A DNA stretch of 41,361 nucleotides, taken from Patescibacteria group bacterium. GTDB lineage: Bacteria > Patescibacteriota > Patescibacteriia > JAACEG01. Location of the stretch: assembly GCA_034660735.1 (NCBI GenBank), contig JAYEJQ010000056.1:1-41361 (forward strand), written 5' to 3'. Below the pieces are notes generated by a model. The model was not told the DNA's origin, ran no database searches, and saw only the letters and a program-made list of their open reading frames with translations. Below are positions 9,129 through 37,430 of this stretch, one piece after another; the stretch's first letter is position 1, and every line of letters begins with the position of its first letter. A program made the position numbers and the translations under genes.

Positions 9129-9301
9129 AGATTTACTGCATAATAAGTTGTGTGGCGAGATTTTTAGATTTTTAGGCAATTTTTAAAAATTTTATAAGTA
9201 TATTTCGTAGTCCTACAGAGGGCGTTGAAAAATTTGACCAAAATATATCTGTCCGCCTTTAGAGGAGAAATCGCAACAGTAAATTATTATGTAATAGTTC
9301 T
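9129..9301 (-). mobile_element. Family-B MITE-like element, full-length copy (inverted relative to 37249-37430)
   Basis: Degenerate TIRs agatttactgcataataa / ttattatgtaatagttct. The interior is collinear with the reverse complement of 37249-37430 (e.g. aaatttgaccaaaatat..ctgtcc.cctttagagg). Carries the hairpin variant ttcgtagtcctacagag (9204-9220). Confidence 0.65.
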
Positions 9302-9368
9302 AACATACTTATAATTTCAGATCTGCATTTTATGTAATATTTTGCATTTTTGAATTTTTTTTAAATTT

Positions 9369-9767
9369 ATGAAAAAGAAAAAAACAATTTCTCATATAGA
9401 TAAAAAAATATTGGAGGAGATTAAAAAATCTTTAGAGGAGAGGCGCGACAAAATTAAAACTGAGTTGGATAAATTTACAAAAGAGGACAAATATGAACAC
9501 GAAAAACACAAGGCTATTTTTCCAGAATTCGGCGATAAAAATGATGAAAATGCTATTGAGATTGCCGCATTCACAGATAATCTTTCAATAGGGAAATCTT
9601 TGGAATATATACTTCGCGACATAGAAGACGCATTACAAAGGATTGAAAAAGGCGTTTATGGAATTTGTAAATATTGCCACGAGCCGATTTCACAAGAGAG
9701 ATTAAAAATCAGACCAGTGTCTTCAGCTTGCGTTAAATGCAAAAAAAAGATAAAAAGGGAAGAATAG
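9369..9767 (+). CDS. DksA/TraR-family C4 zinc-finger protein
   Basis: 132 aa. Coiled-coil N-terminus, then CKYC-x17-CVKC. Confidence 0.75.
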   Translation: MKKKKTISHIDKKILEEIKKSLEERRDKIKTELDKFTKEDKYEHEKHKAIFPEFGDKNDENAIEIAAFTDNLSIGKSLEYILRDIEDALQRIEKGVYGICKYCHEPISQERLKIRPVSSACVKCKKKIKREE

Positions 9768-9837
9768 ATGAATTTTATTAGAGTTTTACAGGGCGGCATT
9801 TCAACCGCTTTGTTTATTGCGGTTATGGTAATTTATA

Positions 9838-9857
9838 AGATTTGCGCGCGCAAGCCT
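9838..9857. repeat. Minimal family-B palindrome (two TIR tips abutted)
   Basis: agatttgcgcgcgcaagcct. The same 20-mer with one change is at 12850-12869. Confidence 0.6.
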
Positions 9858-11263
9858 ATAAAAAAATAAAATTTTATTATAATCATATCAAAATTTCTGT
9901 ACAAAAAATTATAGTTAAATTATTATTAGCAATAATTAAATTGCTGGCATTGATTAAGAATATTTTTGCCTCTATTTTTATTGTTACGATTTATAAAATT
10001 TTGAGCTTTTTATTTAAATTTTTATATAGATCTTGTGGAAGGTTTACTCTTATTAAGTCTTACAAAATTTATAGTTTTATAAAAAAGAATTTGCGGGATA
10101 ATTTTTTTCTGATAAAAAATAAGTTTTTACATATTTTTGGCAGCCGATATATTGTTCATTTTATTATTATAATTATTGCTGGATTAGTTATCACTTCTAA
10201 TACAAAAGCTAATGGAATAAAGGTTGGCGCGACTAAACTAATCGACAATAATTTAATAAGTAAATTAGTCAAAACAGGAGAATTCAAAGATAGCGAGCAG
10301 GTTAATGAATTAATAGAAGAGGATATTGAAATAACAAAGGTTGTAAAAAAAAGAATAGATTCGTATCTTTATGAAAAAAATGAGGCAGTTTCATATCGTC
10401 CGCGGTTAAATATAGCAGAAGAGAATAAAGACTATAATGCTTTATTACAGACAAGCGACACGATTTCAACGCCAAGTATTATAAATACTAAAAAAGCGCC
10501 GCGGCAAAGAACTAAAATTGAATATTACATTGTTCAAGACGGCGATACTGTATTTGATATTGCTAAAAAATATAATATAACAGCCAATACTATTATTTGG
10601 GAAAACAGCCTTAATCGCTATGGATTTATTAAACCCGGACAAAAATTAACGATTTTATCGACAACAGGCATAACATATAAAGTGAAAAAATACGACACAA
10701 TAGGCGGGATAGCTAAAAAATATAATATTAAAGAAAGCGATATAATTAAAGCTAATAATATTACAAGCGTTTCAACTCTACAAATAAATCAAAAATTAGT
10801 CATTCCTGGAGCAAGGCAAGTTTCATCGCCAGTTAGAGTCGCAGTTTCAACTATTTCCAGATATACCAAGTCAGCGGCAGTTAAAAAAACTTCCATTAAA
10901 AGTTCAACAAGGCTACTGTGGCCGGCAAGTTGTCGCGTGATTACCCAATATTATCATTGGGGGCATCATGGATTAGACATCGCGTGTAAGAAAGGAACTC
11001 CAATTTACGCGTCAGAAGATGGAGTTATAAGATCATCTGGTTGGGCGTCTGGTTATGGAAAACGGATTACGATTAATCATGGAAGCGGTATGCGGACTTT
11101 ATACGCGCATTTGACTAAAATTTATGTGAGCTCGGGTCAGGCTGTTAACAGGGGCGACACGATAGGACTAATGGGATCAACTGGATGGTCAACAGGACCG
11201 CATTTGCATTTTGAAGTTATTGCGAATGGCGTTAAAAAAAATCCGTTATCATATATAAAATAA
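9842..11263 (+). CDS. LysM-domain M23 family metallopeptidase, membrane-anchored (start codon uncertain)
   Basis: Two LysM repeats (YIVQDGDTVFDIAKKYNI..., YKVKKYDTIGGIAKKYNI...). M23 motifs HHGLDIA and GPHLHFEV. There is no in-frame ATG in the N-terminal third; the track start is TTG and lies inside the 9838-9857 palindrome. Confidence 0.8.
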   Translation: MRAQAYKKIKFYYNHIKISVQKIIVKLLLAIIKLLALIKNIFASIFIVTIYKILSFLFKFLYRSCGRFTLIKSYKIYSFIKKNLRDNFFLIKNKFLHIFGSRYIVHFIIIIIAGLVITSNTKANGIKVGATKLIDNNLISKLVKTGEFKDSEQVNELIEEDIEITKVVKKRIDSYLYEKNEAVSYRPRLNIAEENKDYNALLQTSDTISTPSIINTKKAPRQRTKIEYYIVQDGDTVFDIAKKYNITANTIIWENSLNRYGFIKPGQKLTILSTTGITYKVKKYDTIGGIAKKYNIKESDIIKANNITSVSTLQINQKLVIPGARQVSSPVRVAVSTISRYTKSAAVKKTSIKSSTRLLWPASCRVITQYYHWGHHGLDIACKKGTPIYASEDGVIRSSGWASGYGKRITINHGSGMRTLYAHLTKIYVSSGQAVNRGDTIGLMGSTGWSTGPHLHFEVIANGVKKNPLSYIK

Positions 11264-11326
11264 CCGCAAAATTTATTATTTGCCAATCGCATTATTTTTT
11301 TGTATAATATACCAAAATGTTACCGA

Positions 11327-11348
11327 ATTGGTTAGCAGTTACATCTTA
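11327..11348 (+). promoter_or_regulatory. Conserved 22-nt motif attggttagcagttacatctta, 5 nt upstream of an ATG
   Basis: Matches 13589-13610 at 21 of 22 positions. Confidence 0.4.
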
Positions 11349-11352
11349 AATT

Positions 11353-12510
11353 ATGAATTACAATAATAATCAAATTCATCCTTACAGAAAAATCGCCTTT
11401 AATTTTTTGTTTATTTCTGTTATTTTAGCAGTTTTAGTTATATATTTTGTATTTTATCAAGTTAAAGTTCATATCACTCCAGCGAAGGAAAAAATAGTTT
11501 CAACATTTTTAATTCAGGTTCAGGAGGACGGGGAAGAGATAATAAGCGAGGGGATTATCAACGGAACGATTGATGAAAAAGAAGCAGAAAGCGAAAGGGA
11601 ATTTTCCGCTTCAGCGGTTAAAGAAAAATTTTTTAGCCAAAACGGAAAAGTTTTTATCATAAACACTGCTGATTTTAATCAGCCGCTTGTCGTAAAAACA
11701 AGGCTGCTTACTGTTGATAATATTCTGTTTAAAATTAAAAATGGAGTTACAGTTCCAGCTGGAGGGGAAGTTGAAGTAGAAGTTTATCCAAGCGATAAAA
11801 ATTTTAACAACGTTATTAAACCATCAAAAATGACAATTCCAGGACTATCATCAAGTTTGCAAGAAAAAATTTACGCTGAAAATAGACAGGATTTAGGAGG
11901 AACAAAAGAAGTAAAAACACTCAGCCAAGAAGATATTGATATTGCTATAGAAACTTTATCAGAAGATTTATATAAACAAATCAAAAGCGAATTTGTTGCT
12001 GCTAATAGCAAGAAAATTAATTTTAATCTATTGGGCAAAATTCCTAAAATTAAAAATGTTGATTTAGAAGAGGTGGTTTTAACAAAAGTTGACAAAAATA
12101 TCGGAGATGAATGCGAAAAATTTAAACTGTTTTTAAAAGCAAAAGTTATGGATATATCTTTTGATGAAAATAAGATTGAAGAATTAGCAAATAAAAAAAT
12201 ATTAGATGACATTCCTGACGACAAAAAATTTATTAAATTAGACAAACGCGATTTTAATTATGTTGTTGAAAAGTATGATCTTAAGAAAAAAATAGCATAT
12301 ATTAAAGTTTATATTTCAGGCGAGATGGCTATTAGCGAAGAGAGCAAGAGATTAGATAAAAGCAAATTCGTCGGAATGTCGTTTATTGAATTAAAAAATT
12401 ATTTAAAGAAATTTCCATCAGTGGAGGATGTTGAAGTATCGTCCGTTGGAAGTTGGTTTAAAACAGTTCCAAATAATAAAAATAAAATTAAAATAATTAT
12501 AAAAAATTAA
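11353..12510 (+). CDS. Hypothetical membrane-anchored protein (one N-terminal TM, large extracytoplasmic part)
   Basis: 385-aa ORF with typical coding composition. TM helix FNFLFISVILAVLVIYFVF. No motif I can name. Confidence 0.6.
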   Translation: MNYNNNQIHPYRKIAFNFLFISVILAVLVIYFVFYQVKVHITPAKEKIVSTFLIQVQEDGEEIISEGIINGTIDEKEAESEREFSASAVKEKFFSQNGKVFIINTADFNQPLVVKTRLLTVDNILFKIKNGVTVPAGGEVEVEVYPSDKNFNNVIKPSKMTIPGLSSSLQEKIYAENRQDLGGTKEVKTLSQEDIDIAIETLSEDLYKQIKSEFVAANSKKINFNLLGKIPKIKNVDLEEVVLTKVDKNIGDECEKFKLFLKAKVMDISFDENKIEELANKKILDDIPDDKKFIKLDKRDFNYVVEKYDLKKKIAYIKVYISGEMAISEESKRLDKSKFVGMSFIELKNYLKKFPSVEDVEVSSVGSWFKTVPNNKNKIKIIIKN

Positions 12511-12514
12511 AATT

Positions 12515-12838
12515 ATGACACAACATTTTAATGAAAAAAATTTTAACGAAGAAGTTATTAAAGCATCTAACAGCAAACCAGTTTTGGTTGATTTTTTCGC
12601 AAGCTGGTGCGGACCGTGCCAGGCACAGTCGCCGACTATTGACGAATTAGCGGAAAGTTTTAAAGAAAAAGCGGTCATTGGCAAACTTGATGTTGGCGAA
12701 TTTAAACAGATAGCCGCCGATTATGGCGTAATGAGCATACCAGCGATTATGATTTTTAAAAACGAAAAAGTCGTTGAAAATTTTGTCGGGCTTCAAACTA
12801 AAGAAATATTAGAAAACGCAGTTAATAAGTATCTGTAA
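12515..12838 (+). CDS. trxA: Thioredoxin
   Basis: 107 aa. WCGPC active site in the standard context. Confidence 0.9.
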   Translation: MTQHFNEKNFNEEVIKASNSKPVLVDFFASWCGPCQAQSPTIDELAESFKEKAVIGKLDVGEFKQIAADYGVMSIPAIMIFKNEKVVENFVGLQTKEILENAVNKYL

Positions 12839-12849
12839 ATTTGACTATT

Positions 12850-12869
12850 AGATTTGCGCGCGCAAGTCT
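12850..12869. repeat. Minimal family-B palindrome
   Basis: agatttgcgcgcgcaagtct, 12 nt after the trxA stop. Confidence 0.6.
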
Positions 12870-13054
12870 ATTCAATATCGTAGATAATATAATATAGACA
12901 ATTATTCAATACAGTAATTTTTCTTTTTTACTCCACCAAAATTTTTGTTTTTCATTTCTTTTATATTACAATAAGGAAGAAAGGCAAAAACTTCAGATAT
13001 ATAGGAACGTTAAATGAAATTTTTATAAACAAACTTTTATATACAAAGTAATTT

Positions 13055-13573
13055 ATGTCTTATATTATGGAGAATTTGCTTTTAATAATTGATATGCAAG
13101 AAGGATTTAGATACCAAGAATCTGAAAAGATATTGCCAAATCTCATGAAACTAAAAGAATCATTCAATGGAAAAATAGTTTTTTCAAAATTTATTAATAA
13201 TAAAGATTCATTATTTGAAAAACAATTAGATTGGACTAAATTTCAAAATAGTAACGATCAAAAACTATTTTCCGAATTACAAGCATCAAACAATATCGAA
13301 ATTCAACATAGTACTTATACTGTGTTAAATGATGAATTAAGGAATTTTATCAAATCAAATAATATTACAAAAGTTTATCTTACGGGAATTTATACTGATG
13401 TTTGCATAGTTAAAACTGCTATGGATTTATTTGATTATAATATTGAAACTTTTGTAATTGAAGATACTTGTAATTCTTTGCATGGGAAAAATAATCATGA
13501 TTCGGCAATTGATAGTCTAAAACATATTCTTGGTAAAAAGCAAATTCTCTTGACTGATGATGTTTGTTTGTAG
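13055..13573 (+). CDS. Isochorismatase-family cysteine hydrolase (nicotinamidase-like)
   Basis: LLIIDMQEGF (Asp), FSKF (Lys) and GIYTDVCI (Cys) are consistent with the family triad. AT-rich gene between long AT-rich spacers. Confidence 0.7.
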   Translation: MSYIMENLLLIIDMQEGFRYQESEKILPNLMKLKESFNGKIVFSKFINNKDSLFEKQLDWTKFQNSNDQKLFSELQASNNIEIQHSTYTVLNDELRNFIKSNNITKVYLTGIYTDVCIVKTAMDLFDYNIETFVIEDTCNSLHGKNNHDSAIDSLKHILGKKQILLTDDVCL

Positions 13574-13588
13574 AAACTCTCCTTCCTT

Positions 13589-13610
13589 ATTGGTTAGCAG
13601 TTACAACTTA
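13589..13610 (+). promoter_or_regulatory. Conserved 22-nt motif attggttagcagttacaactta, upstream of pepA
   Basis: Second copy of the 11327-11348 motif. Followed directly by taatat. Confidence 0.4.
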
Positions 13611-13639
13611 TAATATTAAAAAATATTTAATAAAATTTT

Positions 13640-15091
13640 ATGGAATTTGAATTATTGGACAAAAAAATAGATGAGATTTTCGCGGATTGCGAAGTTGTTT
13701 TCGCGGTTGACAAAAACTTAAAGCATAAATGGATAAAAGATTTGGAATATTTAAAGATGTTAAACTTTAAAGCGGATGCGGAAGAGGCGGTTTTTATCCC
13801 AGACAGAAAAAAGTTATATATTGCTATTGATTCAATGGAACACGATAGCATACGAATTGCTTGCGCTCAAGCAATTAAAATTTTAAAAAAAACTAATTTT
13901 CAATCAGTGAAGATAGGGCTTTACGTCGGAGAAGAATTTAAGGCGGATAATATTAGAGCGATATCAGAGGGGTTTATTTTAGGCGAATATATTTTTGATA
14001 AATTCAGATCAAAAAAAATTAAAAACCCTATAAAAAAAATAATTATTTCATCTGAAGAATACAGCGGAAAATCAGTTGCGGCGAAAATTGCCAAAGAAGA
14101 ATTAAAAACAGGACGAATTTTAGCTAACGCGGTAAATTTTACAAGAGAGATCGCAAATCAGCCGCCAGACGAAATGACGCCGATTCAGATGAGCGAAACA
14201 GCCAAAAAATTAGCCGAAGAGAATAATTTACAATGCGAGATTTACGATGAGAAGTTTTTATTGAAAAATAAAATGAACGTTTTTTTGGCAGTCGGACGTG
14301 GAAGTATAAATCCGTCGCGGCTTATTCATTTAATTTATAAACCGAAAAACGCGAAAAAAAGAATTGCGATTGTCGGCAAAGGAGTTACTTATGACAGTGG
14401 GGGATTAAGCCTAAAGCCGGCTAATTCTATGATAACGATGAAGTCCGACAAAAGCGGAGCGGCGGCAATTTTAGGCACTATGCTTGCTGTTAAAAAATTA
14501 GAGTTACCGATTGAGATTCACGGAATTATCGGCGCTGTTGAAAATATGATCGGCGGAAACGCTTATAAGCCAGACGATATTTTAACTGCTAAAAATGGAA
14601 AAACCATTGAAGTTAAAAATACTGATGCCGAAGGCAGGCTTGTTTTAGCGGATTGCTTGTGCTACGCACAAGAATTTAAGCCAGATTATATTTTAGATTT
14701 TGCCACCTTGACTGGCGCGTGCGTTGTAGCGCTTGGAGAATATACTGTCGGCGTGATGGGATTTAACGCAAAATTAAAAAAAGATATTATGCAAGCGGCA
14801 GATGATAGCGGAGAATTATCAGCCGAGTTGCCGTTTAATAAATATTTGCCAAAATTATTAAAAAGCGAAATCGCCGATATCAACAATTTAAGTTCTTCTA
14901 ATTATGGCGGAGCGATTACCGCTGGACTTTTTTTAAGCGAATTTATCAAGAAAGAAAACAGAGAAAAGTGGGCGCATTTGGATATTGCGGGACCTGCTTA
15001 TGCTGAAAAAGAATGGGGATGTAACCCTTACGGAGCAAGCGGCGCAGGCGTAAAAATGGCAACAAGATGGACAATGAATTTATTGAAATAA
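13640..15091 (+). CDS. pepA: Leucyl aminopeptidase (M17)
   Basis: VGKGVTYDSGGLSLKP and NTDAEGRLVLAD signatures. Confidence 0.9.
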   Translation: MEFELLDKKIDEIFADCEVVFAVDKNLKHKWIKDLEYLKMLNFKADAEEAVFIPDRKKLYIAIDSMEHDSIRIACAQAIKILKKTNFQSVKIGLYVGEEFKADNIRAISEGFILGEYIFDKFRSKKIKNPIKKIIISSEEYSGKSVAAKIAKEELKTGRILANAVNFTREIANQPPDEMTPIQMSETAKKLAEENNLQCEIYDEKFLLKNKMNVFLAVGRGSINPSRLIHLIYKPKNAKKRIAIVGKGVTYDSGGLSLKPANSMITMKSDKSGAAAILGTMLAVKKLELPIEIHGIIGAVENMIGGNAYKPDDILTAKNGKTIEVKNTDAEGRLVLADCLCYAQEFKPDYILDFATLTGACVVALGEYTVGVMGFNAKLKKDIMQAADDSGELSAELPFNKYLPKLLKSEIADINNLSSSNYGGAITAGLFLSEFIKKENREKWAHLDIAGPAYAEKEWGCNPYGASGAGVKMATRWTMNLLK

Positions 15092-15174
15092 TTATCTATG
15101 TTTTTTTTGGTGAATATAAAAAAATTGACAGAAATTATTGATTGTTTATAATAAAAATAAAAAACAATAAAAAT

Positions 15175-15645: not shown

Positions 15646-15691
15646 AATTTATTTTTTAACAAGTGGTAAAAATTAAATTAATTAACATTTT

Positions 15692-16756: not shown

Positions 16757-16818
16757 AATCATTTTAACACAATAACATAATAACATTTAAACATTATAAT
16801 CATACTAAGAAAAACAGA

Positions 16819-20297: not shown

Positions 20298-20484
20298 TTT
20301 TGAATTACAAAACGCAAAAAATATGTCACCCTGAATTTATTTCAGGGTCTGTCATTACTATTCGCTGAATTATAATTGGATGAATAAAATCTAAATTTTT
20401 ATTTTATACTGCTTAAATATAATATAGTAAATAGTAGATACGAATCCTGACCCCGCTGCTCGCGAGCGGCGGGGCAGGATGACA
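20298..20484. mobile_element. Family-A element, copy A5, in the spacer between ADH synthase and DHQ synthase II
   Basis: tgtcaccctgaatttatttcagggtctgtcattac...caggatgaca. The right-end hairpin is replaced by the GC-rich cctgaccccgctgctcgcgagcggcggggcagg. The string aaatattaagatat is present on both sides (20274-20287 and 20527-20540). Confidence 0.65.
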
Positions 20485-21293: not shown

Positions 21294-21858
21294 AAAATTT
21301 ATAATTATATATTAAATTTTGACATATTTTATTTCCTTATTTTTTAACACTCCTTGACAATGGAGAGTCGGGGAGGGTTTTTTAAAAAATTTAACCCCTT
21401 AAATTATCTTTGTCAGGTGGGATTTAATATGAAATATGCTAAAGTTTAGTTATATAAATTAGAAAAACCTCTTAGTGAGGCTTTTGTTTTTTTTAGTTAT
21501 TTTATAAATTAACAATCGCCTCAAATAATAAAATTAAAAAAATAATAAGATACGAAAAAAGAGAAAAATAAATTTTCCCAAATATTAAATACAACTATTT
21601 TTTCTGCTTTAATTAAATTCATTATATATTTTAAATTTTTTGCGACTTTATAATATATTTTACTTCTTATTATATTTTTGTCAAATAATTGATTTTTGTA
21701 AAAGATAGTGCTAATATGTATATAAATTAAAATTTTATATAATAGATTTGCCGCATAATTAATTTCTATCGTGATTTTTTTTCCAAAAAACGGATAAGCA
21801 ATTTTGACCAAATTTTTCAAAAATTTTAACGCCTTCCGAAGCACTTTGGCGGACTTAT

Positions 21859-21930
21859 AAAATTGTTTGAAAAATTTGTCTCACCCCGTAGTCCTACGGG
21901 GCGTCACGAAACTAATTACGCGGCAAGTCT
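21859..21930 (+). mobile_element. Family-B element, right-half copy, ending 12 nt before the ilvB ATG
   Basis: aaaaatttgtctca-ccccgtagtcctacgggg-cgtcacgaaactaattacgcggcaagtct, collinear with 27227-27300 and 37355-37430. Confidence 0.6.
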
Positions 21931-21942: not shown

Positions 21943-23631
21943 ATGATTGGAGCAGATATTTTGTTAAAATCTTTATTAAAAGAAGGAGTAGAAATAATTT
22001 TTGGCTATCCTGGAGGAGTAACAATTCCATTGTATGACAAACTTAAAAATTATCCGCAGATTAAGCATATTTTAACGCGGCACGAACAGGGTGCCGCTTT
22101 AGCCGCTGACGGATATTTTAGAACTACTGGCAGGGTCGGGGTCTGTCTTGCCACATCAGGACCTGGCGCAACAAATTTAATTACTGGAATTGCTAACGCT
22201 TATATGGATTCTATCGGAATAGTCGCAATTACTTGCCAAGTTTCGAGCGCTCTTATCGGCTCGGACGCTTTTCAAGAAGTTGATATCACGAGAATTACAA
22301 AGCCGATAACCAAGCATAATTATTTTATTGATAATATTAATGATTTGCCTAGTATCGTAAACGAAGCGTTTTATTTGGCGTTAAGCGGACGACCGCGTCC
22401 AGTTCATATTGACATACCAGTAGATATTTTAAAAACCGAAGTTAAAAAATTCAATTATCCGTCAAAGGCAAGTTTGTCAAGTTATAGTTCTTTGCAAAAA
22501 ATTAGCAAGGAAGAAATAAAAAAAACTTGTCAATTGATTGAAAAATCCGAAAGACCTATTGTAATCGCTGGACACGGAATATCAATATCGCAAGCAGAAA
22601 CGGAATTAAAAAAATTTATTGAAAAAACGGATATTCCTGTTGTTACCACTTTGTTGGGAATTGGCTCGCTGTCTGAAAAGCATCCGATGAATTTTGGAAT
22701 GCTTGGAATGCATGGAATGGCTTACGCTAATTATGCCACGCATAATGCTGACTTAATTATTGGAATTGGAACTCGTTTTAGCGATCGCATCACTGGAAAC
22801 ATAAAAGAATTCGCAAAAAACGCAAACGTTATTCATATAGATATTGATCCTGCTGAAATTGGAAAAAATATTTCTGTAAATATTCCGCTTCTCGGAGACT
22901 GTAAAAAAATATTAATGGAACTGAATAAAAAAATTGTTCAGTTGTCGCATAGCGATTGGGTGATGAAAATTAAAGAACGGAAGGAGCAGACAGATTTGCA
23001 AAAAATAAAAAAAAGTTCAAGGATTGATAATAATAAATGCTTAATGGCGCAGGATATTATGCGTGAAATAGATTTACAGACTAAAGGCGAGGCGGTTATT
23101 GTTAGCGATGTAGGACAAAATCAAATGTGGAGCGCGCAATATTTTGAATATACAAAGCCAAACCAGTTTTTAAGCGCTGGCGGGCTTGGTTCGATGGGAT
23201 ACAGTCTGCCTGCTTCCATTGGAGCTAAATTTGGAAATCCAAAATCAGACATTTGGGCAATAATGGGAGATGGCGGTTTTCAGATGAATATGCAGGAGTT
23301 AGGCGTAATTATGGAACATAAATTGCCGATTAAAATTATAATTTTAAATAATGGATATTTAGGAATGGTAAGGCAGTGGCAGGAGATGTTTTTTGAAAAA
23401 AATTACGCCGCGACTAAATTAGCAAATCCAGATTTTATCCAAATCGCTAAATCTTACGGAATTGAAGCTTATCAAATAACTGAATGGATGGATGCTAAAA
23501 GCAAAATAAAAAAAGCCATCAATTCAGACAAGCCGATTTTTCTTGATTTCATAATTGGCGCTGAAGATATTGTTTTGCCTATGATTCCAACAGGGAATAA
23601 CCTAGGTGATATTATTGTTGAAAGGAGTTGA
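21943..23631 (+). CDS. ilvB: Acetolactate synthase large subunit-type ThDP enzyme
   Basis: 562 aa. GYPGG, TRHEQGA, TSGPGATN, GDGGFQMN motifs. No small-subunit gene adjacent. Confidence 0.85.
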   Translation: MIGADILLKSLLKEGVEIIFGYPGGVTIPLYDKLKNYPQIKHILTRHEQGAALAADGYFRTTGRVGVCLATSGPGATNLITGIANAYMDSIGIVAITCQVSSALIGSDAFQEVDITRITKPITKHNYFIDNINDLPSIVNEAFYLALSGRPRPVHIDIPVDILKTEVKKFNYPSKASLSSYSSLQKISKEEIKKTCQLIEKSERPIVIAGHGISISQAETELKKFIEKTDIPVVTTLLGIGSLSEKHPMNFGMLGMHGMAYANYATHNADLIIGIGTRFSDRITGNIKEFAKNANVIHIDIDPAEIGKNISVNIPLLGDCKKILMELNKKIVQLSHSDWVMKIKERKEQTDLQKIKKSSRIDNNKCLMAQDIMREIDLQTKGEAVIVSDVGQNQMWSAQYFEYTKPNQFLSAGGLGSMGYSLPASIGAKFGNPKSDIWAIMGDGGFQMNMQELGVIMEHKLPIKIIILNNGYLGMVRQWQEMFFEKNYAATKLANPDFIQIAKSYGIEAYQITEWMDAKSKIKKAINSDKPIFLDFIIGAEDIVLPMIPTGNNLGDIIVERS

Positions 23632-26331: not shown

Positions 26332-27174
26332 TTAAGAAATTAATTTTAATTTATCGCAAATTTTATCAATAAGCCATTGAGGCGCGGACGCTCCAGCGCT
26401 AACGCCAACCGTTTTGAATTTAGAAAATTTTTTTAAATTTAATTTTTTAACGTTGTTTATAAAAAAAGAATTTTTATTTTTTTGTTTAGCTATTTGAAAT
26501 AATCTTGTTGAATTAGCGCTTTTTTTGTCGCCAACAACAATAATTGCGTCATTCTTTTTAGCTAAATTTTTAATATCTTCCTGTCTATCTTTAGTTGTCT
26601 GGCAGATTGTATTAAATATTTTTAATTTTTTGATTTTTTTTAGTAAAATATCTGCAATTTCCATAAAATTTTTTTGGTTTTGCGTTGTCTGGCTCACAAA
26701 CAACGCATTTTTAAATTTAGAAAAATCAATATTTTGCAAATCTTTAATTTTAGAGATAATAACAGCTTGATAATCACACCAACTGTTGACGCCTTTTATT
26801 TCTTTATGATTTTTATCTCCAAAAATTATTATTTTTTTACCTTGCTTGTAAAATTTATGAACAATTTGCTGCAGTCTATTTACTTTCGGGCAAGTCGTGT
26901 CAATAATATTCAATTTTTTATTTTTAGCTTTAAAAATAATTTTTTTTTCTATTCCGTGAGCGGTTATTATAACAGTTCCTTTTTGAATATTGTTTATAGA
27001 ACTGATTTTTTTAATTCCTAATGATTTTATTTTTTTAACAATTTCTTGATTATGGCATAAGTCACCTAAAATATATATGTCTTCATCGTATTTCCCAACA
27101 TAATCCACAACCGTTTGATATGCCTTTTCAACGCCTTGGCAAAATCCAGCGAATTTACTGATTGTTATTTTCAT
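26332..27174 (-). CDS. ispH: 4-hydroxy-3-methylbut-2-enyl diphosphate reductase
   Basis: 280 aa. GFCQGV, TCPKV, Cys triad spacing, SANS motif. Confidence 0.85.
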   Translation of the reverse strand: MKITISKFAGFCQGVEKAYQTVVDYVGKYDEDIYILGDLCHNQEIVKKIKSLGIKKISSINNIQKGTVIITAHGIEKKIIFKAKNKKLNIIDTTCPKVNRLQQIVHKFYKQGKKIIIFGDKNHKEIKGVNSWCDYQAVIISKIKDLQNIDFSKFKNALFVSQTTQNQKNFMEIADILLKKIKKLKIFNTICQTTKDRQEDIKNLAKKNDAIIVVGDKKSANSTRLFQIAKQKNKNSFFINNVKKLNLKKFSKFKTVGVSAGASAPQWLIDKICDKLKLIS

Positions 27175-27226
27175 AAGTTATTAGATTTGTTATGTAATAA
27201 ATTTCTACTGTAATTTTAATCTTTTT

Positions 27227-27300
27227 GCCAAATTTTTGAAAAAATTTGCCTAACCCCGTAGTCCTACGGGGCGTTACAAAATTTATTACGCGACAAGTCT
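27227..27300 (+). mobile_element. Family-B element, right-half copy, ending 1 nt from the ispG stop codon
   Basis: gccaaatttttgaaaaaatttgcctaa-ccccgtagtcctacgggg-cgttacaaaatttattacgcgacaagtct. Confidence 0.6.
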
Positions 27301-27301: not shown

Positions 27302-28357
27302 TTAAAATTTATTAAGTTCTTTTATAAATTCATTTAATAATTTTTTTTCTTTGACTTTTTTAATAATTTTTCCCTTTTTGCAAATCAGCCCGCAGTTTTT
27401 TCCGCCAATTACAGCAATATCCGCCTCGCGCGCTTCTCCTGGACCGTTCACAACGCATCCCATTACAGCGATATGTATCGGTTTTTTATAATTGGAAACC
27501 GCCCTCTCTATTTTTTTAGTTAAAGCGATTAAGTCAATTTCTGTCCGTCCGCAAGTCGGACAACTAGTTATTATCGGACCGAAATTTCTCAAATTCAGAG
27601 AGCTAAGTATTTCTTTAGCGACTTTTATCTCTTCTACTGAATCTGCTGTTAAGGATACGCGGATTGTGTCGCCGATTCCTTTATATAAAAGATGCCCGAT
27701 TCCGATCGCGGACATTATTGTTCCGCGAAAAACCGTCCCTGCTTCGGTTATGCCAATATGCAGAGGATAGTCAGATTTCGTGCTTAATAATTTATATGCC
27801 TCTACGGTTCTTTCTATATCTGACGCTTTTAGCGAGACAGCGATGTCTGTAAAATTTAATTTTTCTAAAATATCTATATGCCTAATCGCTGATTCAACCA
27901 TTGCGTGCGCGGTCGCCTTATTTTTATGTTTATTTAGAATATCTTTTTCCAATGATCCAGCGTTAACTCCGATACGAATCGGTATTTTTTTGCTTTGCGC
28001 CGTTTTAACAACCGCGGCAATTTTTTCTTTTGATCCTATGTTTCCTGGATTTATTCTTAATTTATCAACCCCTTGCCTGATCGCTTCTAACGCTAAACCG
28101 CTTGAAAAATGAATATCAGCCACTAATGGAATTTTAATTTTAGCTTTTATCTCGCTTAAATTTTTCGCCGCCGCCATATTGGGAACAGCAACTCTGATAA
28201 TTTCACATCCCGCTTTTTCTAATTTTTTTATCTGTCTAACTGTTTTTATTAAATCAGCAGTATCCGTGTTTGTCATTGATTGAATTGAAATAGGGGAGTT
28301 TCCGCCGATAAATAAATTGCCGACTTTAATTTTTTTTGTTTTTTTTCTATTTTGCAT
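27302..28357 (-). CDS. ispG: 4-hydroxy-3-methylbut-2-en-1-yl diphosphate synthase
   Basis: 351 aa. VQSMTNT-type N-terminus (IQSMTNTDT), SCPTCGR, MGCVVNGPGE. Confidence 0.9.
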   Translation of the reverse strand: MQNRKKTKKIKVGNLFIGGNSPISIQSMTNTDTADLIKTVRQIKKLEKAGCEIIRVAVPNMAAAKNLSEIKAKIKIPLVADIHFSSGLALEAIRQGVDKLRINPGNIGSKEKIAAVVKTAQSKKIPIRIGVNAGSLEKDILNKHKNKATAHAMVESAIRHIDILEKLNFTDIAVSLKASDIERTVEAYKLLSTKSDYPLHIGITEAGTVFRGTIMSAIGIGHLLYKGIGDTIRVSLTADSVEEIKVAKEILSSLNLRNFGPIITSCPTCGRTEIDLIALTKKIERAVSNYKKPIHIAVMGCVVNGPGEAREADIAVIGGKNCGLICKKGKIIKKVKEKKLLNEFIKELNKF

Positions 28358-30473: not shown

Positions 30474-30475
30474 AT

Positions 30476-30964: not shown

Positions 30965-31030
30965 ATAATCGATTTTTGGCGAATAATTTATCATTTAAAA
31001 AATGAAAATTAGAAGTTAAAAATTAAAAAT

Positions 31031-31459
31031 ATGTCTATTATAAAATGGAGACCTTTATTCGCTGAAGAATTCAGCGATTTCAACAAGGAGTTTGAGGATT
31101 TTGAACTAACTCAAACAAAAAATTTTGTGCCAGCAATTGATGTCTATCAAGACAAAAATAACGTAATTGTTGAAACACCATTGCCAGGCGTTGATCCTGA
31201 AAAAGTTGATATTTCTATTGAAAACGATGTTTTGGTTATTAAAGGCGAAAGCGAGGAAAAAAAGGAAATTGAAGAAAAGAATTATTACCGCAAAGAAGTG
31301 AGAAGTGGAAGTTTTTACAGAACCGTTGCGTTGCCGACTCGCGTTGTTGGAGATAAAGCAGAAGCAAATTACAAAAAAGGAATGTTGAAAATTGTAATTC
31401 CAAAAGCGCAAGAAACAAAGCCAAAGACGATTAAAATCAAGACGACAAGCAAAAAATAA
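31031..31459 (+). CDS. Hsp20/alpha-crystallin small heat-shock protein
   Basis: PAIDVYQDKNNVIVETPLPGV, FYRTVALP, GMLKIVIPK. Confidence 0.85.
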   Translation: MSIIKWRPLFAEEFSDFNKEFEDFELTQTKNFVPAIDVYQDKNNVIVETPLPGVDPEKVDISIENDVLVIKGESEEKKEIEEKNYYRKEVRSGSFYRTVALPTRVVGDKAEANYKKGMLKIVIPKAQETKPKTIKIKTTSKK

Positions 31460-31531
31460 TTTAATTGCTGGTTTTTAGCGGTTAATTTTTTAACCGCTAA
31501 ATGCGGGGGATTAAAAAAATTAAAATTTTTT

Positions 31532-31726
31532 ATGAAACAAAATAATAAAACAAAAGAGCAAGCATTTAGAAAATGGTTTGTTGATATGGTTTATGATAAT
31601 ATGGCAATGGAAGATGAGGCTGTTTTAACTAAAAAAGAGATTAGCGACAGAAGTAAAACACAAATGAATAATTTAATAAAAGAAGGAATGCATAAAAAAA
31701 TTATTTTTCCAAAAAAATATGCCTAA
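31532..31726 (+). CDS. Small protein, candidate antitoxin/inhibitor partner of the downstream Fic protein
   Basis: 64 aa. Overlaps the fic start by 8 nt. NLIKEG is a near match to the (S/T)xxxE(G/N) Fic-inhibitory motif. Confidence 0.4.
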   Translation: MKQNNKTKEQAFRKWFVDMVYDNMAMEDEAVLTKKEISDRSKTQMNNLIKEGMHKKIIFPKKYA

Positions 31727-32285
31727 ATCAAAAACACAACCTACTTTTAGAGAAACAAAATTTGGTATTTTACCTATTGTTGAAATAGAAAATAATATCA
31801 CAAATAATTTAATTAGCGTTAGAGTTTATATTTTAAGAAATTATAAAAAATTAAATATTGGAATTAAATTAGCAAAAGATTTGCATTTAAAATTGTCTGG
31901 AAGTTTATTTGATGAAGCTGGAAATTTTAGAAAAAGGCAAGTAGAATTAGGCGAATATGAACCGCCGAGTTATTTTAAAATTTTGGAAATGATGAAAAAT
32001 TGGGAAGCCGATTTTAATGAAAGAAAAAAATTTATTAAAACATCAGACGGTCATATTGAAATATTGGCGTGGATGATGCACAAATTTTTATGGATACATC
32101 CGTTTTTTGATTATAATGGCAGAATCTCTAGATTATTAGGAGAAATATATTTATTGCAAAATAATTTACCGGTTATGAGTTTTATGGGGGTTAAAAGAAA
32201 TGAATTTGCAGAAGCGATGAAATCAATAACTTTTAAAAATAATTTAAGCGGAATTATTAAGATTATTAAAAAGAATTTAAAATAA
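31719..32285 (+). CDS. Fic/DOC family protein
   Basis: HPFFDYNGRISR matches HxFx(D/E)GNGRxxR except for Tyr in place of the first Gly. No internal (S/T)xxxE(G/N) motif found. AT-rich. Confidence 0.75.
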   Translation: MPKSKTQPTFRETKFGILPIVEIENNITNNLISVRVYILRNYKKLNIGIKLAKDLHLKLSGSLFDEAGNFRKRQVELGEYEPPSYFKILEMMKNWEADFNERKKFIKTSDGHIEILAWMMHKFLWIHPFFDYNGRISRLLGEIYLLQNNLPVMSFMGVKRNEFAEAMKSITFKNNLSGIIKIIKKNLK

Positions 32286-32413
32286 TTCAACAGACAATTT
32301 TTAGCAGTTAGTTTTTATTAGTTGTTAAAAATTGTAAATTGAAAATTTACAAAAAGAAAAGAGCATAGTTCCTCAGTCCATGCTCTTGGTTTAAATTTTT
32401 TGGTTTATTTTTT

Positions 32414-32602
32414 TTAAAAAAGACCAAACTTTTCCATGGTCTTTTTTTTACCTCTCCTTTCCCCTATACTGAAAAAAGAGAAAAACCCAGCCCAGACAAT
32501 GCCAAGAATAAAGGCATTATCTGCACACTGATTTTGGAAAAAAATGTAAAAAGCAGATATTCCTAAAAAAAATATTATTGTAAAATAATCAAAAAATTTC
32601 AT
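32414..32602 (-). CDS. Small two-TM membrane protein
   Basis: 62 aa. Strong SD (aaaggaggag) 6-8 nt upstream of the ATG on the minus strand. Confidence 0.5.
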   Translation of the reverse strand: MKFFDYFTIIFFLGISAFYIFFQNQCADNAFILGIVWAGFFSFFSIGERRGKKKTMEKFGLF

Positions 32603-32786
32603 TTCTTCTCCTCCTTTTCAGTTAATTTGAAAATTAAAAATTATTTTGAATAATTTAATATATCATAATTTATAAATAAATCAATAGATATTAAGTAAAA
32701 ATTTTAAATTGCAAAATAATAATTTTGTAATTTAAAATAAATTATTATAAAATAATTGCTTAATAATCTATGAGATAAATAAATTT

Positions 32787-34763
32787 ATGGCAAAAATTTT
32801 AGGTATTGATCTTGGGACTACAAATTCAGCAATGGCGATTGTTGAAGGCGGAAAACCAAAGATTTTAGAAAACAAAGAAGGAAACCGCACTACGCCGTCA
32901 GTCGTGGCAGTTTCAAAAACAGGCGAACGGCTTGTCGGGCAAGTTGCTAAAAGACAGGCGGTTACAAATTCCAAAAATACGATTTTTTCAGTCAAGAGAT
33001 TAATCGGACGCCGTTTTGAAGACGAGACAATTCAAGATGACATAAAAATGGTGCCGTATAAAATAGAGAAAGCGGGAGAAGGAGTCAAGGTAAAAATGCA
33101 GGATAAAGAACATACGCCCCAAGAAATTTCTGCGATAATTTTACAGAAATTAAAAGCAGATGCAGAGGAAAAATTAGGAGAAAAAATAGAAGAGGTTGTA
33201 ATAACCGTTCCAGCATATTTTGACGACGCTCAGAGACAGGCGACAAAAGACGCTGGCGAAATAGCCGGGTTGAAAGTAAAAAGAATAATCAATGAACCGA
33301 CTGCGGCCGCGTTGGCTTACGGTTTTGATAAAAACAAAGGCGAACAAGTAGTTGTCTATGATTTAGGAGGCGGAACTTTTGATGTCTCGGTTCTTGATAT
33401 TGGCGATGATACAGTTGAAGTAAAATCCACTCATGGAGACACTCATTTAGGAGGAGATGATTTTGATCAAAGAATTATAACTTGGATTATTGATGAATTT
33501 AAAAAAGATCAAGGAATTGATTTAAGCAACGATCAATTAGCGTTGCAAAGATTAAAAGAATCCGCTGAAAAAGCAAAACACGAACTTTCAACAACAACGG
33601 AAACAGAGATCAATCAGCCGTTTATCACAACAGACGACTCAGGACCAAAGCATTTAGTGATAAAAATGACAAGAGCGAAATTAGAGGAGATTGTTGGCGA
33701 TTTAGTTGAAAAGACTTTAGAGCCTTGTAAGAAATCTTTAGAGGATGCGAAATTAAAAGTTAGCGATATTGAGCAGGTAATTTTAGTAGGAGGAATGACA
33801 AGGATGCCTTTGATTCAACAAACAGTTGAAAAATTTTTTAATAAAAAGCCGAATATTACCGTAAATCCAGACGAGGTCGTGGCTTTGGGCGCGGCTGTGC
33901 AAGCGGGAGTTTTACAAGGCGATGTAAAAGATGTTTTACTGCTTGATGTTACGCCGTTGACTTTGGGGATTGAAACATTAGGCGGAGTTTCTACGCCATT
34001 GATTGAAAAGAACACAACAATTCCAACTTCTAAAAGCCAAATTTTTTCAACAGCCGCTGACGGACAAACATCAGTTGAAATAAATGTTTCGCAAGGCGAA
34101 CGATCAATGATGACGGATAATAAAAGTTTAGGAAGGTTTATTCTTTCTGGAATTCCGCCATCACCGCGCGGCGTACCTCAGGTAGAAGTAAGTTTTGATA
34201 TTGACGCGAACGGAATTTTAAATGTTAAAGCAAAAGACAAGGCAAGCGGAAAAGAGCAATCAATTACCATTACAGCTTCATCAGGGCTTTCAAAAGAGGA
34301 AATAGAAAAAATGAAAAAAGACGCGGAAGCGCACGCCGATGACGATAAGAAAAAACGAGAAGAAACGGAAATTAAAAATGGCGCGGATTCGGCTGTTTTT
34401 CAAACCGAGAAAACACTAAAAGAGATGGGCGACAAAGTAAAACCTGAAATTAAAAAAGAGATTGACGAAAAATTAGAAGCATTGAAAAAAGTAAAAGACG
34501 GAACCGATTTTGAAGCGACAAAAAAAGCAATGGAAGATTTGACCAATTCAGTGACGAAAATCGGCGCGGAAATGTATAAAGACCAGCAAGCGCAATCAGG
34601 AATGCCAGGAGCTGAGCAAGCGGGAAAACAGGCTGGGGAAGAAAAGAAAAAAGAACCAGTTGAAGGAGAATATGAAGATGTAAATAAAGACAAAAAAGAA
34701 AACAGCGATAAAAAAGACGAGGAAAAGAAAGATGGTGAAAAGAAAGACGGTGAAAAGAAATAA
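32787..34763 (+). CDS. dnaK: Chaperone DnaK (Hsp70) with a K/E/D-rich C-terminal tail
   Basis: [28 protein letters not shown] signatures. Confidence 0.97.
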
Positions 34764-34776
34764 AACTGATTATGTT

Positions 34777-34802
34777 ATTGCCCGTATGAAAATACGGGCA
34801 AT
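34777..34802 (+). terminator. Hairpin after dnaK (possible attenuating terminator)
   Basis: attgcccgtat-gaaa-atacgggcaat. The T-run is displaced (gttagttttttt). Confidence 0.45.
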
Positions 34803-34967
34803 AGATTTAGTTAGTTTTTTTAAGAGATAAATTATGAAATGTTATTCTAAATCAACTGAAATTGTTACAAAATGTAACGGTTTAAAAATGATAGCGCCTG
34901 TGCGCGGAGGTTATAAAAAATTAAGATAAAAATTTAAAATAGTTTAAAATAATTAAATATAAATTTT

Positions 34968-35270
34968 ATGGACAACAAACAACCGCAGCCAAAACAAGGG
35001 CAGCAGCAAATTAAAATCGCTGACAATATTCCCGGCGCGGAATACAGTAATTTGGCGAATATCAGCCATAATAAAGAAGAATTTCAGATTGTTTTTGCTA
35101 ATGTTATGCCACCGTCAGGCAGAGTAGTTGGAAAGATTATCGCTACGCCAGGACATTTTAAAAGGATTATCGCGGCAATGAAAGATAATTTAAAAAAGTA
35201 TGAAGAAAAATTCGGCGAAGTAAAGGAAGCCGCAAATTTAGGCGAAAAAGAAATTGGTTTTAAAAATTAA
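34968..35270 (+). CDS. DUF3467-like protein
   Basis: 100 aa. YSNLANISHNKEEFQIVF...ATPGHFKRIIAAMKDNLKKYEEKFG resembles the DUF3467 pattern as I recall it. Confidence 0.55.
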   Translation: MDNKQPQPKQGQQQIKIADNIPGAEYSNLANISHNKEEFQIVFANVMPPSGRVVGKIIATPGHFKRIIAAMKDNLKKYEEKFGEVKEAANLGEKEIGFKN

Positions 35271-35278
35271 TAAATTTT

Positions 35279-36370
35279 ATGCAAAAAGATTATTATAATA
35301 TATTAGGGGTTAATAAAAGTTCATCAGCTGACGAAATTAAAAAAGCTTTTCGGAAATTAGCGCACAAGTATCATCCAGACAAAAAAGGCGGGGACGAGAC
35401 AAAATTTAAAGAGATAAACGAGGCTTACCAAGTTTTATCAAATCCGCAAAAAAAACAGCAATACGACCAATTCGGACAGACGTTTGACCAAACTCAGGCA
35501 GGCGGAGAAGGATTTAGCGGGTTTGACGATTTTAGCGGATTTTCTGGATTTAATTCTGGATTTAGTTCAGGCGGCGGTGTTGAGTTTGATTTGGGGGATA
35601 TTTTAGGCGATTTTTTCGGAGGCGGAAGAAAAACAGGAAGGGCTGCGAGAGGCAGAGATATTCAAGCAGATATAACTATAGAATTTTTAGAGATGATAAC
35701 TGGCGCGGAAAAAGAGATTGAGATTTTTAAAAATTCGGTTTGCGATAACTGCGGCGGGACAGGCGATGATCCTAAAAGTGAACAAAAAATTTGTTCAACC
35801 TGTAACGGGAAAGGCGAGATAAAAAAAATGCGTCAGACAATGTTCGGATCCATGGCAACATCCGCGATCTGCCCAGACTGTAATGGAGAAGGAAAAATTG
35901 CCTCAAAAAAATGCGAGGTTTGCAAAGGTACCGGCGTTATAAAAGAGAAAGAAAAAATTAAAATCAAAATTCCAATGGGAATAAACGAAGGGGAAAGCAT
36001 AAGAATATCTGGAAAAGGCGAAGCAATCAAAAAAGGCGCGGCAGGCGATTTATATATAGTTATTCATATTAGACAAGGTACTGAATTTTTAAGAGTTGGC
36101 GATGATATCAATACAGTGAAGCTGATAAAATTAACGCAGGCTATTTTGGGCGATAAAATAGAAGTTGACACTCCCGAAGGAAAGGTTAAGTTAAAAATTC
36201 CAGAAGGGATAGAATCAGGAACTGAATTTCGCTTGAGAGGAAAGGGAATTCCGCATTTAAGAGGTTTTGGAAGAGGCGATTTAATAATTAAAATCATAAT
36301 AACAATTCCAAAACGGCTCACGCGAGCGCAGAAAAAAATAATAAAAGAATTAGAAAAAGAAGGATTATAA
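35279..36370 (+). CDS. dnaJ: Co-chaperone DnaJ
   Basis: J domain with HPD (KYHPDKK), G/F region, four CxxCxGxG zinc-finger repeats. Confidence 0.95.
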   Translation: MQKDYYNILGVNKSSSADEIKKAFRKLAHKYHPDKKGGDETKFKEINEAYQVLSNPQKKQQYDQFGQTFDQTQAGGEGFSGFDDFSGFSGFNSGFSSGGGVEFDLGDILGDFFGGGRKTGRAARGRDIQADITIEFLEMITGAEKEIEIFKNSVCDNCGGTGDDPKSEQKICSTCNGKGEIKKMRQTMFGSMATSAICPDCNGEGKIASKKCEVCKGTGVIKEKEKIKIKIPMGINEGESIRISGKGEAIKKGAAGDLYIVIHIRQGTEFLRVGDDINTVKLIKLTQAILGDKIEVDTPEGKVKLKIPEGIESGTEFRLRGKGIPHLRGFGRGDLIIKIIITIPKRLTRAQKKIIKELEKEGL

Positions 36371-36536
36371 GTAAATTGACATATTTTTTATCTGTGATAA
36401 TCTTTAATTGTAAGTTTAATAATCAATCATATTCTCAAGGATAAACTCCTCCCTATAATAGGGCAATAGAGAATAGAAGTTGTTTTTTTATTATTTAATT
36501 TTTTGAATATAAAAAAATAAAAAAAGGAGAAAATTT

Positions 36537-37250
36537 ATGACAAAAATACCAGACACTTTAAAGATGTTAAAAGCAGGGTTGCATTTCGGGCATCGCTCCT
36601 CAAAATGGCATCCTAAAATGAAACCTTATATCTTTACAACTCGTAATGATATACACATCATTGATTTAGAAAAAACAAGAAAGGCGCTAAAAAATGCCTG
36701 TGAATTTATTGAAGATTTATCAGCAAAAGACGGTGTTATCCTATTTTTAGGAAGCAAGCCACAGATTAAAGAGTTAGTAAGAAAAAAAGCGATAGAAGCG
36801 AATTCTCCATCTGTTGTAGATCGCTGGCTTGGCGGAACCATTACTAATTTCTTTATTATTTCTCAAGTTATAAATAAATATAACAATCTAAAAAAAGAGA
36901 AGGAGGATGGCGGATGGGACGAAAAATATACTAAAAAAGAACAGGTTGTATTAAGAAAAGAAGTAGAAAGGCTTGAAAAAAAAGTCGGGGGAATAAAAAA
37001 TTTAAAAAAAATCCCTGACGCTATTTTTATAATTGACTGCAAGAACGAAAAAACAGCTTTAAACGAAGCAAAATTAAAAAAAGTCCCTGTTATCGCTTTA
37101 TGTGATACAAACATCAATCCAGATGGCATTGATTATGTAATTCCAGGAAATGACGATTCCATTAAAGGCATAGAGATGATTTTGGGTTTAGTGGTTGAAG
37201 CTATTAAAAATGGGCGGAATAAACCTATTAATCAAAAAAATAATAAATAG
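36537..37250 (+). CDS. rpsB: 30S ribosomal protein S2
   Basis: LKAGLHFGH, IHIIDL motifs. Strong SD aaaggag. Confidence 0.92.
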   Translation: MTKIPDTLKMLKAGLHFGHRSSKWHPKMKPYIFTTRNDIHIIDLEKTRKALKNACEFIEDLSAKDGVILFLGSKPQIKELVRKKAIEANSPSVVDRWLGGTITNFFIISQVINKYNNLKKEKEDGGWDEKYTKKEQVVLRKEVERLEKKVGGIKNLKKIPDAIFIIDCKNEKTALNEAKLKKVPVIALCDTNINPDGIDYVIPGNDDSIKGIEMILGLVVEAIKNGRNKPINQKNNK

Positions 37251-37430
37251 ACTTGTCGCATAATAACTTTTTACTGCGATTTTCCCTCCAAAGGAGGACA
37301 GGCATATTTTGGTCAAATTTTTTATCCACCCTATCGCGAGAAGGGGGATGAAATATTTGCCTCAAAATCTGAAAATCTCGCGGAATTTATCCCGTATTCG
37401 CTACGGGGAAATTTATTATGCGACAGGTCT
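37249..37430 (+). mobile_element. Family-B MITE-like element, full-length reference copy (182 bp, 18-bp TIRs)
   Basis: agacttgtcgcataataa ... ttattatgcgacaggtct (17/18 inverted match). Internal hairpins ccct-atcgcgaga-aggg and cccgta-ttcgc-tacggg. The first two bases are the AG of the rpsB TAG stop codon. Confidence 0.75.

Follow-up and report, generated by a model that had tools for sequence, protein, structure and literature searches.

Family B is a set of repeats in a 41,361-nt stretch of DNA from a Patescibacteria group bacterium (assembly GCA_034660735.1, contig JAYEJQ010000056.1, positions 1 to 41,361, forward strand), hereafter called the window. It is a genuine MITE family (miniature inverted-repeat transposable elements), non-coding and nearly palindromic, built from a 140-nt core and optional hairpin modules of 19-23 nt. 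Very probably these are non-autonomous elements of the IS5/Harbinger type, which duplicate 3 bp of the target on insertion; the family is ordinary in kind and apparently undescribed for this bacterial group. A second and more tentative proposal concerns palindromes of only 18-20 bp in the same genome (mini-palindromes, or minis), which may themselves be mobile. The window is the complete contig C56 of a metagenome-assembled genome (MAG) that is 94% complete and comprises 815,712 bp in 77 contigs, with 31.5% GC.

Inventory and structure of family B

The first-pass annotation, made from the letters of the window alone, had proposed a non-autonomous element family, and this proposal is now supported by a genome-wide inventory, by target-site duplications, by empty orthologous sites and by the transposases of related insertion sequences (ISs). 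The 18-mer AGACTTGTCGCATAATAA, which forms the element ends, has 21 exact matches in the 816-kb genome, far beyond chance. Pairing plus- and minus-strand matches to the terminal inverted repeats (TIRs) delimits 21-22 complete elements, 116-187 nt long and spread over 17 contigs, to which a profile search adds fragments at contig ends and about a dozen solo ends. None of the copies has a conserved open reading frame (ORF). The TIRs measure 18-20 bp, with a mean of 1.8 mismatches between both ends of one element. This compares with 2.8 under permutation (7 of 20,000), so that the two ends of an element co-vary.

Once oriented, the copies share an aligned core of 140 nt, and four variable blocks yield size classes of 140, 159, 163 and 182 nt. 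These include a 19-nt hairpin module (block 1), a GC-rich central hairpin, CATCCCCCTTCTCGCGAGAGGGGGGATG, or its AT-rich replacement (block 2), either CAAAATCTGAAAATCT or the CCCCGTAGTCCTACGGGG hairpin (block 3), and a 23-nt hairpin module (block 4). A single extended hairpin is the predicted fold of the core (-62.3 kcal/mol, z -12.3). Modules M1, M4 and H3, all optional, were considered as independent mobile hairpins and rejected, since they are confined to family-B copies, bar one tRNA-like fragment. This fragment is a truncated tRNA-like copy at 7812-7870, beside tRNA-Asp, in which the position of the anticodon arm is taken by CTCCGTAGTCCTACGGAG, two mismatches away from a hairpin found in some family-B copies and its sole occurrence outside a MITE.

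Identity between copies reaches 98.6% for nearest neighbours, with a pairwise median of 87%; young and old copies coexist. Short derivatives of 22, 34 and 51 nt also occur in this genome, each different from the others. Three contig ends (C71:35123-35248, C74:1-126 and C57:2-183) break off inside family-B copies, so the repeat is among the reasons why the assembly is fragmented.

Target-site duplication and empty orthologous sites

The elements are flanked by 3-nt direct repeats, chiefly AAT or ATT and once AGT, a duplication that the first-pass annotation had overlooked. The 3-nt flanks are identical in 23 of 29 elements, and their middle base agrees in 27 of the 29 against 13.2 expected, levels reached by none of 20,000 permutations. 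The direct repeat never reaches 4 nt, and the logo of the flanks suggests T-ANT-A as the insertion context.

Insertion is also documented by presence/absence polymorphism when orthologous regions are compared in two genomes of the same genus (G001 and G002) and three of the same family. Four full-copy sites and three mini-palindrome sites are empty in the same-genus genomes, five of them lying in the window. The site between rpsB and tsf is empty in G001 and G002, and removal of the element together with one AAT restores aaaTAA and a spacer of 19 nt, the length found in G002. The ispG-ispH site is empty in G002, G005 and G006, while the G001 spacer retains an 18-nt end remnant with the same odd ATTACAYAACA variant. 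Both the site in the leader of the DksA-like gene and that upstream of ilvB are empty in G001 and G002, the latter reading aaaaatAATttttattttATG.

Family B is present in six of the seven genomes of the same taxonomic family, relatives carrying 13-34 matches, and is essentially absent from the 33 other families sampled. A TIR scan of genome contigs located the same MITE family in several genomes of the candidate phyla radiation (CPR). The nearest genomes with the repeat carry the labels Patescibacteria, Falkowbacteria, Moranbacteria and Magasanikbacteria, one of the last having a 54-nt copy; in view of these labels and of the large insertions in its 23S rRNA, the genome of the window is treated as being of CPR type.

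Probable source of the transposase

When 301 genomes of the window's class were searched for DDE_Tnp_4 (PF13359), nine gave matches. Four complete ISs of 1,021-1,055 bp were delimited in four class genomes; their ends read AGAC(T/C)TGTTGC, and each contains one ORF of 300-309 aa with PF13359 (DDE_Tnp_4) and PF13613 (HTH_Tnp_4) domains. Two of the four are flanked by AAT or ATT duplications. One genome (G050, identical to G307) has one of these ISs together with the same MITE family. Against the NCBIfam model 'IS5 family transposase', the class transposases score 63-67 bits, below the cut-off of 140, and assignment to an IS5 subgroup is thus tentative.

The same kind of end is found well beyond this class. 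The class transposases are about 44% identical to homologues on cyanobacterial plasmids, and plasmid pNPUN02 of Nostoc punctiforme carries a 1,003-bp IS with AGACTTGTCGGGAAATAA ends and an AAT duplication. MITEs with unrelated interiors, sharing AGACTTGTTGC ends and 3-bp duplications, occur in Xenococcus, in Trichodesmium, in a Fibrobacterota MAG and in a Methanobacteriota MAG (Table 1). In the Fibrobacterota genome, an IS end nearly matching its own MITE precedes a transposase gene whose product matches PF13359 (E 1.2e-23) and PF13613 (E 1.3e-11). The occurrence of AGACTTGTTGC ends across distant phyla points to a widely transferred IS group; where the genomes are bins, contamination is the alternative.

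According to the mechanism proposed here, the TIRs of family B would be recognised by an IS5-family transposase with DDE_Tnp_4 and HTH_Tnp_4 domains, the bacterial counterpart of PIF/Harbinger, supplied in trans. The element would insert at A-N-T targets in AT-rich DNA and duplicate those 3 bp. The relationship between IS5 and PIF/Harbinger is recognised, and the target duplications of canonical Harbinger elements measure 3 bp (PMC12730594, PMC3673617).

Several points weigh against this proposal. The search for a cognate transposase, suggested in the first-pass annotation, found the family in related genomes as described above, and none of its members at home: with PF01609, PF13359, a protein query and local tblastn, no cognate DDE_Tnp_4 or DDE_Tnp_1 transposase was found in the assembly or in seven relatives of the same family. 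Multi-copy ISs are often lost from bins and the MAG is 94% complete, so the absence of the transposase is not proven. No similarity between MITE and IS extends beyond about 16 nt, and family B is therefore not a simple deletion derivative of the ISs found. The copies could be fossils instead of an active family, 6 of the 29 flanks are imperfect, and the gene context of the copies comes from crude longest-ORF calls. The nearest-neighbour identity of up to 98.6% argues for recent activity, and we infer both such activity and a transposase acting in trans in this organism.

Three candidates for an autonomous partner were rejected. TIR pairs 250-5,000 bp apart, examined as possible full-length ISs in the genome, are merely neighbouring separate MITEs. 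A 509-aa transposase of G006, the one PF01609 match across the taxonomic family, has unrelated ends. A 1.3-kb 'IS' at a Melainabacteria locus is really an ABC transporter beside a 40-nt mini copy.

Palindromes of 18-20 bp

The two 20-bp palindromes of the window that the first-pass annotation had described as end-to-end joined TIRs were found as quoted, and three more, which it had overlooked, lie elsewhere in the genome. Of the five, four measure 20 nt and one 18 nt; all are intergenic and all have 3-bp flanking repeats. They consist of two overlapping 11-nt end cores (AGAYTTGC-GCG), each half being equal to TIR positions 1-12 of the GCC subfamily less one base, with the halves overlapping at the centre. 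At all three testable sites (those on C12 and C53 and that at 9838 of the window), the congeners have neither the palindrome nor a full element; at 9838, the orthologous spacer of G001 and G002 reads ttttATAgcataaaatttt. The region downstream of trxA, with the mini at 12850, and that upstream of the C71 mini are non-syntenic in the relatives, and the comparison of empty sites accordingly covers three minis. About 75 nt from the position of the C53:3811 mini, G001 has a full family-B copy that breaks its assembly (L226, L228; end of C94, start of C9), so one spacer has been hit independently in two species.

The minis were not found in the seven family relatives. Across 251 class genomes, short AGAYTTG...CAARTCT palindromes stay near background, with at most three per genome, and only the genome of the window has several mini copies. 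Of 29 short look-alikes from other genomes, 0 are flanked by direct repeats, and a search of metagenome contigs with the 20-mer returned a single GC-rich match, attributed to chance.

The palindrome AGAYTTGCGCGCGCAARTCT may itself be transposable, a 'nano-MITE' inserted at least four times in this species by an IS5/Harbinger-type transposase, a proposal to which we give slightly less than an even chance. The simplest account of five near-identical products at fresh sites is a single origin with subsequent transposition. Such an origin, with several later mobilisations within this species, is favoured, though unproven, and the minis would then have moved as units. Two difficulties stand in the way: the central GCGC of the minis cannot be obtained by a single deletion of any full copy, and we know of no precedent for a transposase acting on only ~11 bp per end.

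A less probable explanation, though one that keeps some weight, is that the minis are immobile, each being an excision footprint, or the outcome of a hairpin-stimulated collapse, of a full element of which the end cores and the 3-bp duplication were kept. Long palindromes are unstable, and in-situ deletion predicts that the duplication is kept. Decay does occur in these genomes, as illustrated by the 22-, 34- and 51-nt derivatives, the 18-nt solo end in the ispG-ispH spacer of G001 and the 54-nt Magasanikbacteria copy, and with the copy of the type found at 21744 the minis have the outer 8 bp in common, AGAT/AGAC asymmetry included. However, near-identity among the five products contrasts with the other decay products, each of which is different, and no observed TIR variant would yield the GCGC centre through one deletion. 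The testable sites are moreover plainly empty in the congeners, three out of three, and never hold a full element, so a footprint would require insertion and stereotyped loss at each site within one lineage. The relatives, for all their 13-34 family matches, have no such product.

If the minis do transpose, a nano-MITE would be far smaller than any MITE described, and ~11 bp per end would suffice for this transposase family in vivo. The 20-bp version would represent the minimal substrate of the family and a potential very small insertion tag.

The mini at 9838 had also been said to cover the only candidate start of the M23 peptidase gene. It does cover the first canonical start, the TTG at 9842; this is not the sole candidate, since in-frame TTGs follow at 9941, 9950 and 10001. 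In G001 and G002 the orthologues keep a conserved N-terminus (NHIKIS...) that lacks the palindrome and is closely preceded by a stop codon. The ancestral start of the gene thus lies elsewhere, and the palindrome has at most created an upstream extension. In both congeners, the stretch from that stop to the first hydrophobic helix contains no ATG, GTG or TTG (N-terminal peptide at window 9884-9950; L019, L020), which points to initiation either further along or at a non-canonical codon (ATC, ATT or ATA). A 33-codon ORF, MNFIRVLQGGISTALFIAVMVIYKICARKPIKK, at 9768-9869, has an ATG overlapping the dksA stop and reads through the same mini-palindrome. Its ATG is ATA in G001 and G002, and other genera have a longer membrane-protein gene after dksA, which gives the ORF the look of a relic N-terminus.

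Placement at gene ends

The placement, called striking in the first-pass annotation, withstands re-examination. The element at 37249 provides the AG of the rpsB TAG stop and ends 24 nt ahead of the tsf ATG, the ispG-ispH copy is separated from the ispG stop by 1 nt and from the ispH ATG by 8 nt, and the copy before ilvB ends 12 nt ahead of its ATG. By the crude ORF calls, no copy interrupts a recognisable gene, all of them being intergenic and near starts or stops in a genome with a coding fraction of 85%. Three circumstances account for this pattern, namely short spacers, the A-N-T target and the regeneration of stop codons. The ancestral spacers are short (~19 nt for rpsB-tsf and ~6 nt for ispG-ispH), and an insertion tolerated in them necessarily abuts genes. 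Every junction reads TAG, the T being the last base of the duplication and the AG the first two of the element. This has rebuilt the stops of rpsB, an L,D-transpeptidase-like gene (C12:17935) and two other ORFs. An insertion splitting TAA after its T would rebuild the stop as T/AG and would hence be tolerated. The A-N-T target and the stop-rebuilding T/AG junction may apply to the whole IS group.

A regulatory origin, in which the copies would be host sites (transcription-factor operators, terminators or attenuators) alike through shared function, is very improbable. The intergenic position of every copy near starts or stops would fit such sites, and a transcript of the element is predicted to fold into a highly stable hairpin. 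The single terminator-like hairpin detected, a weak one, belongs to an optional module of the rpsB-tsf copy. The copy at 9129 lies in the 5' leader of the DksA-like gene, whose TTTACA-N17-TATAAT promoter has its -10 box right before the element. Nevertheless, the orthologous sites in the same genus are empty, which excludes a conserved regulatory palindrome lacking presence/absence polymorphism, the scenario that the first-pass annotation had itself set against its proposal. The copies bear 3-bp duplications, and the same ends bound transposase-bearing ISs. The copies have no conserved position with respect to promoters or genes, their orientation in tandem spacers is unbiased (8 same versus 6 opposite), and consensus scans of the elements detected no outward promoter. 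The suggestion that the outward-facing ends carry promoter or terminator function is consequently unsupported for the family as a whole. Individual copies, such as that in the dksA leader, may still have such a role, and single copies may have been exapted, without this being the origin of the family. For annotation, the repeat matters in that it breaks assemblies and confuses the calling of gene starts and stops in ultra-small genomes of the CPR/Patescibacteria type.

Comparison with known systems

Family B resembles the plant PIF/Harbinger MITEs Tourist and mPing in that it is short and non-coding, has TIRs, inserts near genes with a 3-bp AT-rich duplication, and would be mobilised in trans by a DDE_Tnp_4-type transposase. 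Its end motif ..CTTGTTG.. appears to resemble the end consensus of Tourist and the IS5 family. It differs from them in being prokaryotic, in its A-N-T (AAT/ATT) rather than TWA target, and in forming an almost complete palindrome. Whereas PIF/Harbinger elements need a second, Myb-like protein, the bacterial ISs found have one ORF. The family would thereby tie a bacterial MITE to the IS5/PIF-Harbinger lineage that stands behind Tourist and mPing.

With the DDE_Tnp_4 ISs of the class and of Nostoc pNPUN02, family B shares identical or nearly identical terminal 11-16 nt, AGACTTGT(C/T)GC, and the AAT/ATT duplication, although it has neither coding capacity nor similarity past the ends. IS5-family ISs with duplications of 2-4 bp, namely the ISfinder subgroups ISL2, IS1031 and IS427, are counted among the nearest known systems as well.

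Among the classical bacterial MITEs, reviews cover Correia of Neisseria, RUP of Streptococcus pneumoniae, ERIC, and Nezha of cyanobacteria (PMC3184786, PMC10969869). Family B is similar to them in its length of 100-190 nt, its TIRs and stable hairpins, its intergenic location and co-transcription with neighbours, and its filled and empty sites between relatives. None of the four is known to have an amplified 20-bp member. In the literature searched, no report of Correia, RUP, ERIC or Nezha from CPR bacteria was found, nor any MITE from bacteria of the CPR/Patescibacteria type. Despite the cyanobacterial link, Nezha is ruled out as the same family by its direct repeat of ~10 bp (PMC6042816).

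Correia and RUP differ from family B in duplicating TA, and a MITE of their kind, with GACTTG...CAAGTC as the element proper and an IS630/Tc1-mariner transposase, is the least likely explanation of all: a T on the left and an A on the right of every copy would permit the reading TA/GAC...GTC/TA, but the base outside the TA co-varies between the two flanks (AAT/AAT, ATT/ATT, AGT/AGT; ATG or ATC in cyanobacteria), an agreement in 27 of 29 elements that excludes a TA duplication, the reconstructed rpsB-tsf spacer equals the G002 length under the 3-bp model alone, and the transposases between such ends are DDE_Tnp_4, not DDE_3.

The minis, finally, are comparable in size to the REP/BIME sequences mobilised by RAYT transposases, which are short GC-containing intergenic palindromes of 20-40 nt. 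REPs lack target-site duplications and TIR-defined ends and use a Y1 (IS200-like) enzyme, whereas the minis have 3-bp duplications and outer 8 bp in common with the MITE ends.

Family-B copies and other features of the window

The four full copies of the window and the minis of the genome are listed in Table 1, together with the MITEs of other genomes and the neighbouring genes, whose identities as given in the first-pass annotation were confirmed. The copy at 37249-37430 has the TIRs that had been quoted for it, and the inverted, degenerate copy at 9129-9301 was recovered both by sequence and by nhmmer. Two stretches, 21859-21930 and 27227-27300, had been described as right-half copies; they do contain the CCCCGTAGTCCTACGGGG hairpin, and both belong to full elements with two ends. 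An Rfam scan of the window reported only rRNA and tRNAs, with no RNA family on any family-B element.

Table 1. Locations of family-B copies, mini-palindromes, related MITEs and genes (window positions, unless a contig or locus is named).
Feature	Location	Strand	Flanking repeat	Remarks
Full MITE, 182 nt	37249-37430	+	AAT (37246-37248 and 37431-37433)	Core with both optional hairpin modules; between rpsB and tsf; nhmmer E 7e-38
Full divergent copy, 187 nt	21744-21930	+	AAT/AAT	Ends AGATTTGCCGC...GCGGCAAGTCT; left end AGATTTGCCGCATAATTA; variant central segment; CCCCGTAGTCCTACGGGG hairpin at 21884-21901; nhmmer E 4.8e-17, model positions 1-140 covered
Full shortened copy, 118 nt	27183-27300	+	ATT/ATT	Central GC hairpin absent; degenerate left end AGATTTGTTATGTAATAA; CCCCGTAGTCCTACGGGG hairpin at 27254-27271; occupies ispG-ispH spacer; nhmmer E 3.8e-17, model positions 1-140; predicted folding energy of the RNA -35 kcal/mol (z -6.2)
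Degenerate full copy, 173 nt	9129-9301	-	AAT/AAC	Minus-strand nhmmer match 9130-9297, E 1.4e-15; M1 module variant at 9248-9267
Mini AGATTTGCGCGCGCAAGCCT, 20 bp	9838-9857		ATA/ATA	Between DksA-like and M23 peptidase genes
Mini AGATTTGCGCGCGCAAGTCT, 20 bp	12850-12869		ATT/ATT	11 nt past thioredoxin stop
Mini	C12:3564		AAT	
Mini, 18 nt	C53:3811		ATT	
Mini	C71:11681		AAT	
MITE, Xenococcus	L038		ATG	
MITE, Trichodesmium	L064		ATC	
MITE, Fibrobacterota MAG	L042, L066, L087, L088, L092, L101, L108			97 nt, at least 7 copies
MITE, Methanobacteriota MAG	L060			
DksA-like gene	9369-9767			
M23 peptidase	9842-11263			
Thioredoxin	12515-12838			
ilvB	21943-23631			
ispH	26332-27174	-		
ispG	27302-28357	-		
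rpsB	36537-37250			
tsf	37455-38228			

The 23S rRNA match (188-4356) spans 4,169 nt against a model of 2,925 nt, so the gene carries ~1.2 kb of insertions, which include three direct repeats of ~150 nt (1300-1452, 2108-2258 and 2500-2652). A second repeat family with the hairpin TGTCATCCTGAATTTATTTCAGGATGACA, presumably the family A of the first-pass annotation, is found in the window at 1705-1802, 4492-4622, 4977-5138, 20316-20377 and 38507-38604. An element related to this second family fills the ispG-ispH spacer of G003 (L018), exactly the position that family B occupies here.

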